A DNA stretch of 64,000 bases from a virus (IMGVR_UViG_3300036770_006434:96001-160000); one strand, 5' to 3'. Positions 254 to 22,841 are shown, numbered from the stretch's first letter. Program-made: numbers and translations. Notes: generated by a model not told the origin, from the sequence alone.

Positions 254-1081
254 TTACAGGATATCCCGTAATCCGGCGATAACCCATTCAGCGGGAATAT
301 CCGATACCGTCCTGCCAACCAGATATCTTCCGTTTTTGTTGATGGGCTGGATATTATGAATGTAGTCCCGGCCAAAGTAGCGTTCCGAGTATAACCCGAC
401 TACCGGGAAATCATACCCGGAAAGAAGCCAGTTGAACCCGGAGTCGCCCATGACCATGGCTCGGCAGCCAAGAACGTTGCGAACGGACGTAAAATAATCA
501 GTGTCCAGTTTTGCGACGTTATCCAACTTGGGCTCAGTCGGGCCGCCGACCTGCAATACGCCGTAGCCGAGACCGAGGATTGCGTCCACGATTTCCTGCG
601 CCTTGGCCGGCGGGATTGCCTTCGGGTTGTTCACGCCTTCATGGAAGGATGGCCAAGGGGAAAATGCCACAAACTTTTCGAGACCCGGCGTCGGTTTGAA
701 CCATTTGGTAAGAGTGATCTTCCCGTCATCACCATCGTAGGGAATTCCATGCATGTGCGCGGCTTCCAGCGCCTGATGACGGTTCTGCCACCAAGGAGTG
801 GAATGGTCATGGTCGGCCATGGGATTGAAAACGTGGGCAAACCTCTGGGAGTTGATCCAATCCATGTCTACGGAATCAAACCCGTCTCGGGACTTGTTCA
901 AAATGTGAACCCGGTCAATGTGGGGACTGTCCAGAAAGATAGGCGCACATTCTCTGAAATCGCCGGCAATCACGAAGGTCAGGTGGGAGTCGGGGACAGC
1001 ACGTTTCAGGCAGCGGGCAGCGACGGACATCATGTAGAGGTCGCCATACATATTTGGATTGAACCCAAGGAAGCGTTTCAT
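254..1081 (-). CDS. Glycosyltransferase, GT9 (heptosyltransferase)-like GT-B fold
   Basis: N-terminal 'MYGDLYMMSVAARCLKRAVPDSHLTFV' and C-terminal 'MVMGDSGFNWLLSGYDFPVVGLY' match the GT9 GD-x-x-M and DSG-x-x-H/W motifs. Confidence 0.75.
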   Translation of the reverse strand: MKRFLGFNPNMYGDLYMMSVAARCLKRAVPDSHLTFVIAGDFRECAPIFLDSPHIDRVHILNKSRDGFDSVDMDWINSQRFAHVFNPMADHDHSTPWWQNRHQALEAAHMHGIPYDGDDGKITLTKWFKPTPGLEKFVAFSPWPSFHEGVNNPKAIPPAKAQEIVDAILGLGYGVLQVGGPTEPKLDNVAKLDTDYFTSVRNVLGCRAMVMGDSGFNWLLSGYDFPVVGLYSERYFGRDYIHNIQPINKNGRYLVGRTVSDIPAEWVIAGLRDIL

Positions 1082-1083
1082 TT

Positions 1084-19709: not shown

Positions 19710-22700
19710 ATGTCCCGCAAAAAGAAAATCGTTCTTTCCACCAACCCGCCTTGGCTCCACACCGGACTGGCGGAAAACGGTCGCTTTCTGGCACAATGGT
19801 TGTATAAGACCGGAAAATATGACCTCTCCTATTACTGCTCCCAGTCCAGTGTGGCGGACCCCAATCACGGGCGGCAACCTTGGAAGAGTCGCGGCTGTAT
19901 CCCGAACGACCCCAACATTATCCAACAGCTGAATCAGGACCAGAACCGCGCCAGAATGGCATCATACGGCGGGCTGCTCATCGGACAAGTGGTAAAAGAG
20001 GAACAACCGGACATCCTGTGGTGTTCGGACGACGCTTGGGCGTTCCCCGGAAACGAGTTTTTCAACGCCCCTTGGTGGAATAAAATCAATCCGATTCTCC
20101 ACATCACGGTAGACTCTCTCCCCATTCTGGAACAGGCGTATGATCAGGCGAAAGTGACGCCCAATTTTTTTACGTGGGCCAAATTCGGGTCCACCGAAAT
20201 GCGGAAACGTGGCCCGGAATGGGCGCATACCAAGCAGATTTACGGCGCGACGAATGTAAACAATTTCTCTCCGGTTTCAGCGAACGAGAAAGCGGAGTTG
20301 CGGCGACGGTTCGGTATCGGGCAGAACACACTGGTATTCGGATTCACGTTCCGTAACCAGTTGCGAAAAGAAGCGCTTTCCGTCCTTCGCGCGTTCCAAG
20401 AGTTTACGAAACTCCACAAAACGGTTGACGCAAAACTCCACCTGCACACGAGTTGGAGTGAAACCGCGAACGGATGGGACATCCCGAAGTTCATCAAACT
20501 CTTCGGTGTAAATCCCGAAAGCGTGCTCTGCACTTACGTTTGCAAAAACTGCGGGAACTGGCACATCTCCCCGTATCGCGGCGAGGATCAGAACTGCCCG
20601 TATTGCGGGGCGCAGAAGTCCATGGTAACCGCCAATATCAATCACGGTGTTCCGGATGAGGAAATGAAATATGTCTACGGCATCCGTGACGCGACAGTTT
20701 CCGCTTTCACCTCCGGTGGTCTGGAATTCGAGAACGTGAATACCCTCCTTTGCGGACTCCCGCTGGCCAGCACCAATTACTCGTGCGGTCAGGATTTCTG
20801 CGAGCAACCGTTTGTGACTCCTATCGACTGGCATTTCCGCAATGAGGCTGGCACCTCTTTCATCAAGGCCACCAACGATATCGGCTCCATCCGGAAGTTC
20901 ATGGAAAAGATTTCTGCCATGTCTCTTGCGAAACGTCAGGAAATCGGAGAAATCGGGCGGGATTGGGCGAAGAACACGTTTTCCATCGAGTCTATTGGGC
21001 CGCAGTGGGAGCAAGTTTTCGACGCTTTGCCGCCAAAAGATTGGTCCTCCATCTCCCTTACGCCGCCGCGCAAGAACGAGACTTATCCTATTCCCCAGAT
21101 TCAGGATGATCAAGCATGGGTGACGGCGCTGTATAACAATATCCTTGTCTGTCAGCCCGACCCCGATGGGCTCAAACACTGGATGTCCCAGCTGAAATCG
21201 GGAATCACGCGAGACGCGATCTATCAGTTTTTCCTCAAGATTGCCCGCGAGGACAACGCCAAGCTGGAGCCGCCGAAAGACTTCTCATCCCTGTTTGACG
21301 CAAATGATAGGAAGAAAATCCTCTTCGTAATGAAGGAGTCCGGCGGGGACCTGTTTATTGCCAGTGCCCTGTTCAAGGGACTGAAGGCTCTATACCCCGG
21401 AGCAGACCTATACGTTGGGTGCGAACCCAAATTCGCGGAAATCATTGCTGGAAATCCCTATGTTCACAAAATCCTGAGCTACCACCCGGCCATGGAGCAG
21501 GAACTGGTCATGCGCAACTACGTTGACCATTACTACTTCCCGGCGGTCCAGACGCAAAGACAACTCGGGTATCTGACCCGCAAGTTGACGCTGGCCCAGA
21601 CCTACGCGCACGCATCCGGCGTTGAGTTGGACAAACCTTGGATTCTGTCCACGTTTTTCCCGCTGGATCATCCGGTCGAAAAATCTATTCTGATCCACGC
21701 CTTTGCCGGGGCCACGGTAAACCAAAACGGGCAAATCCACGCCACGTTTCCGGCCAAAATCTACGATCACTTCAATGACGTGGTCCAGCTCCTGAAACCA
21801 ATCGCGGAATCTCTCGGCTACAAACTGTATCAGATCGGCGGACCCGGCGAACCCGGCTTGAAGGGAATAGAGTCTCTGGTCGGAAAAACGAGCATGCACC
21901 AATGCGCGTATCTGGTCAAAAACTGCGCGCTCCTTATCGGGAATGACTCCATGTGGGCTCATATCCGAGGGGGCGAAATGAAGCCACAGGTCCATATCTA
22001 TGGCTCAACTTCATCCCCTCATTTCCCACACTGGCGCGACCCCGAAAAGTCGTTTTTGATCGAGTCCCATCGCGGCGGCAAGAAACCCAGTTACGCGGCT
22101 GTAGAAACCCCCAAGACGATCAACTGGATCACGCCGGAAGAGATCGTGAATACGTCCCTCAAAGCGATTGGAGCTGAACGGCGCGTGACCCAGAAATCCA
22201 TTCTGTTCGGCGATGCCTACCATGTGGCAGCGGTCGAGCTTGTGCCCAACTGTATTGTCGGTCCACAAGTTCAGATGCCGGGACCTCTGGTGGTCAGAAT
22301 GGATTATGTGTCGGACGCAAAGGCGGCAGAGCCCCATCTCCTCTCCAATCTACAGATCAGGCCGTGCCTGATTATCACGGACAAGGAATTGGACCTGAAC
22401 CTTTTGCGACAGGCCAAGCCGAGGATCACAGCGTTGCGCGTAGAGGTTGACAAAGTAAGTCCCGAATGGGTCAAGCAGGTCAAAAAGATCGGTATCCCGA
22501 CGGCGTTTTTCTCATCGGAACAGGACCCCGAAAAACTCGCCAAGCTACGGTTGGACTATTACGATACCTGCGTTTTCGACCATTTTCAACCGCCTAAGAA
22601 AGAGGAGTTTGAAAAACTTGCGGCAACATACCTGAACAAATCTCTTGACGCAGGTGGCATACCTGCTAACCTAAGGTTTGCTACAAATAAATTCCTTTTA

Positions 22701-22841
22701 TCCGAAGGAAAGGTCTATCTGTCAAAGGCTCACTGGAAACTCGGCAAACACGCCGACAGCACAGAAAAAAATACCGATGACGTGATAGATTCTCCGGATT
22801 TCTGGGAAGAGTTTTCACACTTCTACATATACCAAAAATGA
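19710..22841 (+). CDS. Multidomain glycosyltransferase: GT4 (with Zn-ribbon insert) + DUF4214-like + GT9-like + C-terminal unknown domain
   Basis: 'GFTFRNQLRKE', 'CKNC...CPYC', 'FTSGGLEFENVNTLLCGLP'; 'WVTALYNNIL...PDPDGLKHW'; 'GGDLFIASALFKGLKALYP', 'LLIGNDSMWAHI'. Confidence 0.75.
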   Translation: MSRKKKIVLSTNPPWLHTGLAENGRFLAQWLYKTGKYDLSYYCSQSSVADPNHGRQPWKSRGCIPNDPNIIQQLNQDQNRARMASYGGLLIGQVVKEEQPDILWCSDDAWAFPGNEFFNAPWWNKINPILHITVDSLPILEQAYDQAKVTPNFFTWAKFGSTEMRKRGPEWAHTKQIYGATNVNNFSPVSANEKAELRRRFGIGQNTLVFGFTFRNQLRKEALSVLRAFQEFTKLHKTVDAKLHLHTSWSETANGWDIPKFIKLFGVNPESVLCTYVCKNCGNWHISPYRGEDQNCPYCGAQKSMVTANINHGVPDEEMKYVYGIRDATVSAFTSGGLEFENVNTLLCGLPLASTNYSCGQDFCEQPFVTPIDWHFRNEAGTSFIKATNDIGSIRKFMEKISAMSLAKRQEIGEIGRDWAKNTFSIESIGPQWEQVFDALPPKDWSSISLTPPRKNETYPIPQIQDDQAWVTALYNNILVCQPDPDGLKHWMSQLKSGITRDAIYQFFLKIAREDNAKLEPPKDFSSLFDANDRKKILFVMKESGGDLFIASALFKGLKALYPGADLYVGCEPKFAEIIAGNPYVHKILSYHPAMEQELVMRNYVDHYYFPAVQTQRQLGYLTRKLTLAQTYAHASGVELDKPWILSTFFPLDHPVEKSILIHAFAGATVNQNGQIHATFPAKIYDHFNDVVQLLKPIAESLGYKLYQIGGPGEPGLKGIESLVGKTSMHQCAYLVKNCALLIGNDSMWAHIRGGEMKPQVHIYGSTSSPHFPHWRDPEKSFLIESHRGGKKPSYAAVETPKTINWITPEEIVNTSLKAIGAERRVTQKSILFGDAYHVAAVELVPNCIVGPQVQMPGPLVVRMDYVSDAKAAEPHLLSNLQIRPCLIITDKELDLNLLRQAKPRITALRVEVDKVSPEWVKQVKKIGIPTAFFSSEQDPEKLAKLRLDYYDTCVFDHFQPPKKEEFEKLAATYLNKSLDAGGIPANLRFATNKFLLSEGKVYLSKAHWKLGKHADSTEKNTDDVIDSPDFWEEFSHFYIYQK
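22645..22672 (+). promoter_or_regulatory. Possible intragenic sigma70-type promoter for the downstream recombinase-like gene
   Basis: TTGACG-N16-TAACCT, overlapped by the inverted repeat GCAGGT-N5-ACCTGC. Confidence 0.35.

Follow-up and report, generated by a model that had tools for sequence, protein, structure and literature searches.

A large glycan-writing gene island in an uncultivated siphovirus, with phage proteins as its possible target

What does a tailed bacterial virus do with a long run of glycosyltransferase (GT) genes, and on what would their products act? The question is raised by positions 254-22841 of IMGVR_UViG_3300036770_006434:96001-160000, a stretch of 64,000 nucleotides (hereafter the window) that represents bases 96001-160000 of a virus record rated complete (190,671 bp, flanked by direct terminal repeats). 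A first-pass annotation, made from the sequence alone, had read this region as a glycan assembly line of nine GT genes (ten GT domains) and four S-adenosylmethionine (SAM) methyltransferases. We found that all of the proposed GT genes and domains have GT folds, by Pfam, PHROG, profile, hhalign or structural model, and that the island extends beyond the left edge of the window. The genome as a whole encodes at least 14 GT domains, which fall into three fold types (GT-A, GT4-like GT-B and GT9-like GT-B), about six of them being GT9-like. Among the sets of sugar-adding and sugar-decorating enzymes seen in bacterial viruses, this is one of the largest. Analysis of the gene set leads us to propose, with a probability of roughly 0.4, that it would form a phage-owned cytoplasmic assembly line that writes glycan onto phage proteins.

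Gene content marks the virus as a siphovirus: its tape measure protein is 2062 aa long, its tail-tip proteins are of lambda type, with a central fibre of 1634 aa, and its large terminase has distant relatives only. No nucleotide match to phage was found among 50,697 cultured phage records, and host inference failed, the terminase relatives being distant and a Gmd-like protein being 35-39% identical to cellular proteins of many phyla. Single-sequence Pfam (E<=10) and PHROG searches were empty for five of the nine GT genes (254, 4914, 5960, 8358 and 10727, each gene being named here by its first coordinate); because most of the GTs thus lacked a Pfam or PHROG match, family profiles or structure models were needed for them. 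Relatives were therefore collected for each family in turn, followed by family profiles, hhalign, AlphaFold2 (AF2) models, Foldseek, VIA-align and Atlas matching. The prospect that most of the open reading frames (ORFs) would match no GT fold in profile and structure searches did not materialise. The GT genes of the window are also taken to be real genes because the GT and methyltransferase genes claimed here are conserved as proteins in related contigs. They are as follows:

254..1081, minus strand: GT9-like glycosyltransferase of 275 aa (family profile, hhalign)
4914..5699, minus strand: GT9-like glycosyltransferase, one of three paralogs in the genome (ORF open to 5828; hhalign, Atlas)
5960..6709, minus strand: GT-A glycosyltransferase, GT13-like (AF2, VIA-align, invariant E-D-D)
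8358..9230, minus strand: GT-A glycosyltransferase nearest to ThuS/SunS (ORF open to 9320; profile)
9549..10379, minus strand: GT-A (GT2-like) glycosyltransferase (profile; homologs in 20 loci)
10727..11554, minus strand: GT-A glycosyltransferase encoded by the best-conserved gene of the module (ORF open to 11623; AF2, Foldseek and profile)
11777..12688, minus strand: GT-B (GT4-like) glycosyltransferase (PHROG, 9.8e-7; profile)
15165..16307, plus strand: GT-B (GT4-like) glycosyltransferase of the module core (PHROG, 1.8e-10; homologs in 19 loci)
19710..22841, plus strand: fusion of a GT4 with a CxxC..CxxC insert, a DUF4214, a complete GT9 and a family-specific C-terminal domain (Pfam, PHROG)

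Judging by homolog coverage, the true starts of genes 10727, 8358 and 4914 are probably at 11554, 9230 and 5699, respectively.

Four genes were assigned to the GT-A fold, 10727 and 5960 by high-confidence models and 8358 and 9549 by sequence profiles that match GT-A chains. No Pfam GT2-family match above cut-off was obtained for any of the four (none at all for 5960, 8358 and 10727; under cut-off for 9549). The 10727 family comprises 255 metagenomic homologs, none of which has a Pfam domain. Its AF2 model has a predicted local distance difference test (pLDDT) score of 92, all of its top Foldseek matches in the PDB are GT-A glycosyltransferases with a probability of 1.00, as they are in the viral libraries, and its profile matches the N-terminal domain of TagF and 6p61, both GT-A domains in the PDB; Q93-x-D95-Q96 occupies the position expected for the DxD motif. 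For 5960, whose model also has a pLDDT of 92, Foldseek alone returned a mixture of GT-A transferases and nucleotidyltransferases and the family profile found no solved relative, while VIA-align ranked POMGnT1 (Z 17.4) and GnT-I (Z 17.2) first; E111-D112-D113 is invariant in 13 homologs and placed as in these two GT13 enzymes. The 8358 profile matches the peptide S-glycosyltransferases ThuS and SunS (7msk, 6.7e-6; 7msp, 7.7e-4) and no other GT at E<=10; the family has homologs in 17 loci, with D92 and E95 invariant. The 9549 profile matches TarS (2.9e-3) and chondroitin synthase, with Pfam GT92 and GT2_4 under cut-off, and D105-E106 is invariant in the family.

The remaining genes encode GT-B enzymes. 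The profile of the 254 family (A6) matches WaaF (1psw, 3.1e-7), the GT9 structure 3tov (5.5e-7) and WaaC (1.4e-3), and hhalign aligns the family with the GT9 part of 19710 at 98.1%. The weakest GT assignment is that of 4914, for which the family profile found no solved relative and the hhalign comparison with the GT9 part of 19710 was insignificant; it aligns with the 254 family (hhalign 90% over 186 columns) and its Atlas model reaches a TM-score of 0.75 to a bacterial PF01075 (GT9) cluster. Neither the 254 nor the 4914 protein alone reaches the PF01075 cut-off. Of the two separate GT4-like proteins, 11777 (profile A10) matches GT4/GT5 chains at about 1e-7 and also the lipopolysaccharide (LPS) galactosyltransferase WaaB (5n7z), and 15165 (profile A8) matches 5i45 (2.5e-6) and then, as its second-best solved relative, chlorovirus B736L (2.7e-5).

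The fusion protein 19710 contains the sole GT domain that passes Pfam directly (PF01075, cut-off 22 bits; score 32.4, or 34.8 when the genome was searched). Its N-terminal GT4 part has a PHROG glycosyltransferase match and weak PDB matches, with invariant cysteine pairs (CxxC...CxxC), and its residues from about 536 to 767 align with the whole of a 254-type protein (hhalign 97.5%). In relatives the same protein is divided between two genes that overlap, with products of about 630 and about 415 aa (e.g. L005:2193-5332 and L001:9995-13152). Its last 253 residues have 61 homologs in the database, every one a separate protein 315-432 aa in length (nearly all about 380-430 aa); PF01075 was found in 49 of the 61. 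Because the split point, near residue 625, falls between the two Rossmann halves of the GT9 domain, a GT9 divided over two polypeptides is the usual state, and the two have been fused in this phage. ADP-heptose is a possible donor of the GT9-like enzymes.

The four methyltransferases proposed earlier, including the FkbM types at 2813 and 4382, all score above the curated Pfam cut-offs:

1692..2417, minus strand: SAM methyltransferase, Methyltransf_23 (Pfam 4.1e-10, 40.1 bits against a cut-off of 27)
2813..3526, minus strand: FkbM methyltransferase (PF05050, 1.5e-13, 51.7 bits; NCBIfam fkbM_fam, TIGR01444, 59 bits against 37.7)
3508..4110, minus strand: SAM methyltransferase, Methyltransf_24 (Pfam 1.8e-8, 35.7 bits against a cut-off of 26.3)
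4382..4927, minus strand: FkbM methyltransferase (PF05050, 1.8e-13, 51.4 bits; NCBIfam 50.4 bits against 37.7)

We infer that the FkbM enzymes O-methylate sugar. A homolog 55% identical to the 1692 methyltransferase is present in the 205-kb relative L005. The content of the island at 254-22841 therefore stood as first described, except that a supposed DUF6165-like gene has no DUF6165 match at E<=10 anywhere in the genome; its extent did not stand, the island running on for about 10 kb past the left edge of the window on the same strand and continuing the leftward arm.

Annotation of the 20 kb upstream of the window (L031) revealed a sulfotransferase, an APH-type kinase, a GT34-like GT, a 280-aa paralog of 4914 and a 577-aa protein whose N-terminal half is a further 4914 paralog (hhalign 100% for the 577-aa and 99.3% for the 280-aa protein) and whose C-terminal half has no match to GT-A profiles. 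A weak GT2-like gene (Pfam E 0.009, with a weak hhalign match at the DxD site) was also found, together with an SDR epimerase and a split, transketolase-like thiamine pyrophosphate (TPP) enzyme pair. The latter, at L031:12111-13221 (genome 88111-89221), is a minimal enzyme of 210-aa and 158-aa subunits that overlaps the epimerase gene, and the combination suggests synthesis of a branched or chain-extended keto-sugar. The absence of nucleotide-sugar synthesis genes from the window was confirmed, and a scan of the rest of the genome located such genes 0.6-60 kb upstream of it. They include a Gmd-like dehydratase past the ribonucleotide reductase genes (Pfam 2e-87; NCBIfam gmd 1e-82) and, about 58 kb upstream of the window, a protein resembling RfaE domain II, the adenylyltransferase domain of HldE (1.9e-43); both fall below the NCBIfam equivalog cut-offs. 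GmhA, SIS_2, PfkB kinase and NTP_transferase are absent from the genome, so that a heptose pathway, if heptose is used, would be mostly host-supplied. With at least 14 GT domains, four methyltransferases, a sulfotransferase, an APH-type kinase and sugar-nucleotide enzymes, the suggestion of a multi-residue, decorated glycan is strengthened.

Some of these decorating functions raise a different possibility, namely that the product is soluble or secreted: a glycocin-like glycosylated peptide, a small glycoside, or the output of genes that serve several unrelated targets. FkbM enzymes, split TPP enzymes, sulfotransferases and APH-type kinases are common in natural-product clusters, the best NCBIfam match of the kinase is a lanthipeptide kinase subunit (weak, 3e-6), and 8358 is ThuS/SunS-like. 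We consider this explanation improbable, since no conserved small Cys-rich precursor ORF was found (the small ORFs at 8065-8361 and 10388-10720 have no homolog in any relative), no exporter is encoded, and the core is kept as one module across distant relatives.

The extent of that conservation was determined with the 10727-family profile, which retrieved 26 IMG/VR loci on contigs of 12-219 kb. Presence of homologs was compared in 27 loci, L001 and L009 being two stretches of one contig, and 18 parent records were searched, four of them at least 92% complete and 191-219 kb in length. The core module in relatives consists of the GT4 gene (15165), a gene for a 139-aa protein (17847), a weak GT2-like gene, the four GT-A genes and the two-gene form of 19710, and a Gmd-like gene often lies within 10 kb of it. 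PF01075 is present in 17 of the 18 parent records and the RfaE-like gene in two. The GT9-like paralogs occur in only four or five of the 27 loci, and the entire methyltransferase block is retained in a single relative, L005. A conserved core thus stands beside a variable decorating set. The core GT-A has no near or protein-level relative in the cultured phage records. The core GT4 has a single weak match in cultured phages, which lies inside a 1226-aa protein of Microcystis phage Mel-JY01. We also noted that this protein, annotated as an 'FkbM methyltransferase' in the 190,001-bp cyanophage genome (PP395634.1, L033:4750-8430) and including the GT4-like segment, is encoded next to a structural protein gene and near the terminase.

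In the mechanism that we propose, the enzymes would extend a hetero-oligosaccharide step by step. The glycan would contain a GDP-mannose-derived 6-deoxy sugar, possibly branched, and probably heptose, and would then be O-methylated, sulfated and phosphorylated. The conserved core would write the base structure and the genes that vary among relatives (GT9-like, methyltransferase and sulfotransferase) would diversify it, yielding a variable glycan coat. The acceptor would most likely be phage-made protein in the cytoplasm, that is, the exposed virion proteins, on the model of the chloroviruses and, at a smaller scale, the mycobacteriophages. Three sets of negative results bear on this. No hydrophobic segment was found in any GT, methyltransferase, kinase or sulfotransferase of the island. 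Priming phosphoglycosyl transferases (PF02397, PF00953) and the Wzx flippase (PF01943) are absent from the complete genome under searches in which the controls match, and the phage therefore brings no lipid-carrier export route. ThyA-family and Tet/JBP enzymes were found neither in the complete genome, where three controls matched below the cut-off, nor in the 18 relatives, where the Tet_JBP run gave no control signal. Because the enzymes are soluble and priming, flippase, ThyA and Tet/JBP functions are lacking, a cytoplasmic macromolecular acceptor other than DNA is favoured. The nearest relatives of 8358 (the peptide-glycosylating ThuS and SunS) and of 5960 (GT13 enzymes that act on protein-linked glycans) count on the side of a protein acceptor.

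The same soluble enzymes could act at the cytoplasmic side of the cell membrane, modifying lipid-linked intermediates of the host (lipid A-core or an undecaprenyl-linked glycan), with export left to host transporters. Such remodelling of the host envelope is, in our estimation, possible and somewhat unlikely, as is the effect that it would have, an altered cell surface that during infection blocks superinfection or keeps progeny from sticking to debris. It draws on the GT9 profiles, which among solved structures match only the LPS heptosyltransferases WaaF and WaaC, and on the match of 11777 to WaaB; the RfaE-II-like adenylyltransferase and a weak Kdo/WaaP match of the APH-type kinase together recall inner-core assembly. 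The gene for a protein with a Tat-like leader and a tail-fibre-like segment (7358-8086) also lies inside the island, and published readings of GT-rich cyanophage islands favour a change of the host surface (PMC12801897). Set against this are the lack of any encoded priming transferase, flippase or membrane-anchored enzyme, the core GT-A families, which are without cellular annotation among the 255 homologs and are absent from cultured phages, the small number of relatives with the RfaE-like gene, and the little time that such a phage would have to renew the outer leaflet of its host.

DNA is a further conceivable acceptor, the GTs then placing sugars, including heptose, on a modified base to defeat restriction. 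Phage enzymes of the GT-A and GT-B types are known to decorate 5-hydroxymethylcytosine (5hmC) with one to three sugar residues (hexose, N-acetylhexosamine, heptose), with epimerases and APH kinases sometimes nearby (10.1101/2023.12.21.572611); a C5 cytosine methyltransferase is encoded some 3 kb away from the Gmd-like gene and some 10 kb away from the first of the upstream glycan genes; and in relatives the module is found among genes for DNA metabolism. That no Tet/JBP dioxygenase or ThyA-type hydroxymethylase turned up in this genome or in the 18 relatives (the Tet_JBP run on the latter giving no control signal) argues against DNA as the acceptor, as do ThyX and two DNA methyltransferases, which point to ordinary bases, and the total of 14 GT domains plus methyl, sulfate and phosphate writers is far beyond any known DNA glycan. 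Hypermodification of DNA is accordingly very improbable, in keeping with the earlier view that the gene set exceeds what simple base glucosylation would need.

The position and expression signals of the island also bear on the acceptor:

12987..13270, both strands: divergent promoter-like region for both arms (consensus matches only)
23854..23875, plus strand: strong terminator-like hairpin between the island and the virion genes (8-bp stem, seven of its pairs G-C, plus a T run; located in the 23821-23899 gap)

The promoter-like region contains TTGACA-16-TATAAT, a 12/12 match, on the plus strand at 13243-13270 and a 10/12 site on the minus strand at 13014-12987. Such host-type promoters suggest early expression, which suits action on the host envelope. 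We also observed that the roughly 700 bases between the two arms (13183-13885), within which the perfect TTGACA-16-TATAAT lies, hold no convincing gene; homologs are lacking for the ORFs called at 12685-13182 (its upstream part) and 13883-14311, neither of which is likely to be a gene.

Several observations weigh against virion proteins as the acceptor. By its sequence signals (the host-type promoters, and the hairpin that parts the rightward arm from the virion genes) the island is not co-transcribed with the virion genes. The neighbours of the module in distant relatives are RecA-like, DnaB, primase, nuclease and NrdAB genes and not structural genes, so that gene position gives no support for a virion target. 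The virion proteins have no Ser/Thr-rich C-terminal tails like those reported in glycosylated mycobacteriophage proteins, and the GT9 enzymes of known structure to which the island is related belong to LPS core synthesis, which keeps remodelling of the host envelope a strong competitor. From similarity of fold no firm conclusion on the acceptor follows, and a protein acceptor is predicted from the genes alone. A small share of the probability was assigned to none of the readings named. The fuller form of our proposal is more doubtful than the proposal itself: that an uncultivated, widespread clade of large siphoviruses builds a methylated, sulfated and phosphorylated virion coat, with GT9 domains, one of them split between its Rossmann halves, repurposed to protein acceptors.

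Glycosylation of phage proteins by a phage-owned assembly line would have its closest model in the chlorovirus PBCV-1, whose capsid protein is glycosylated in the cytoplasm by GT-A and GT4 enzymes that are soluble and expressed early, together with a methyltransferase and a virus-encoded GMD (PMC5408694). The present virus likewise encodes soluble GTs, a Gmd-like gene and methyltransferases, and its 15165 family matches B736L. Unlike the chlorovirus it is a siphovirus with a bacterial host, and its additional genes provide many GT9-like domains as well as sulfotransferase, kinase and TPP functions; the likeness is one of fold and family, drawn from genes. Among siphoviruses with phage-encoded GTs, the Che8-type mycobacteriophages are proposed to decorate capsid and tail proteins (Freeman et al. 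2023, as cited in PMC12619734 and PMC12801897), and in these phages GT genes are few (two in the one genome checked, PMC11256854) and glycosylation is at C-termini. The virus described here differs in its at least 14 GT domains and decorating enzymes, in the absence of Ser/Thr-rich C-terminal tails and in having no sequence match to cultured phage.

Islands of comparable size are known from the cyanomyoviruses S-SCSM2R, S-SCSM1 and P-SSM2, where putative 'cell wall synthesis and modification' islands hold about 13 GTs, sugar epimerases and a cytidylyltransferase (PMC12801897, 2025); one cyanomyovirus has 13 GTs and 22 surface-glycan genes (PMC12801897). Our virus, by contrast, is a siphovirus with a lambda-like tail tip, has phage-only GT-A families and about six GT9-like domains, adds FkbM, sulfotransferase and split TPP genes, and has no Kdo genes in the annotated parts of its genome. 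With bacterial LPS inner-core assembly (WaaC/WaaF/WaaQ and HldE) it shares the GT9 fold and motifs and an adenylyltransferase like HldE domain II; it lacks GmhA and a heptose kinase, and its GT9 is fused to GT4-DUF4214, or in relatives is split between halves. The 5hmC DNA glycosylation clusters of Pyle et al. are defined by a 5mYOX or ThyS partner and produce trisaccharides at most (10.1101/2023.12.21.572611). Shared with them are phage GT-A and GT-B enzymes, heptose (among those clusters' sugars) and epimerase and APH neighbours; the 5mYOX/ThyS partner is absent here, and far more enzymes are encoded. Big phages with large carbohydrate islands are already known, as is virion glycosylation in mycobacteriophages. 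What sets the present island apart is the lineage, the several phage-only GT-A families without a Pfam model, the approximately six GT9-like domains, the split and fused GT9, and the combination of FkbM, sulfotransferase, kinase and TPP functions in one phage.

Four further genes lie within the island:

1084..1692, minus strand: HNH-type endonuclease, inserted as a mobile element and no part of the glycan set (PHROG endonuclease, 2.2e-21)
2414..2809, minus strand: conserved 131-aa protein accompanying GT9-like genes (homologs beside GT genes in 6 loci)
7358..8086, minus strand: accessory protein combining a Tat-like leader with a segment that resembles central tail fibre J (PHROG, 1.1e-8; TAT_signal weak, E 0.22)
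17847..18266, plus strand: conserved 139-aa protein of the module core (homologs in 15 loci)

The HNH endonuclease is missing at the equivalent place in the syntenic relative L005. The 2414 protein has no Pfam, PHROG or DUF6165 match, and the 7358 protein has a homolog in only one relative, the 219-kb L004. Homologs of 17847 sit between the GT4 and the core GT-A in relatives, and Atlas matching placed it with virus-only unnamed clusters only. No Rfam families or tRNAs were found within the island.

Further endonucleases were observed at 17049-17837 and 50137-51084 and as an AP2/HNH-type ORF across the left edge of the window, and a homing endonuclease of GIY-YIG/HNH type (38840-39766) lies between two minor tail protein genes (38082-40688). 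The ORF at 18638-19387 encodes a 249-aa protein in which a Pro/Ala/Lys-rich linker is followed by a terminal DDDSVPF, like the tip of bacterial single-stranded DNA-binding protein, and which has no Pfam match. In the virion region, two adjacent paralogous genes at 25026-27051 are 44% identical, the first having an extra Ser/Thr/Gly-rich insert of about 90 residues. Upstream of the window, a ThyX gene is split by an intein with an HNH endonuclease (L031:415-2166, genome 76415-78166; Thy1, Intein_splicing and HNH in one 583-aa ORF), and a response-regulator receiver protein (Response_reg, 2.8e-12) is encoded between the Gmd-like and ribonucleotide reductase genes (L031:4842-5423, genome 80842-81423).

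The phage-only GT-A families, the GT9-like cluster outside LPS synthesis and the natural split and fused GT9 pair are useful material for enzyme discovery. Were the host envelope the target, the island would provide a well-defined module with which to test the long-standing hypothesis that large phages remake the surface of the cells they infect. If the virion is the target, a tailed phage would write a complex, decorated glycan without the glycosylation machinery of its host, which has so far been known only from mycobacteriophages, at small scale, and from giant viruses of algae and amoebae, at large scale. Such a coat would bear on recognition by hosts, grazers and antibodies, and the island would be a bacterial-virus counterpart of the glycan machinery of giant viruses.

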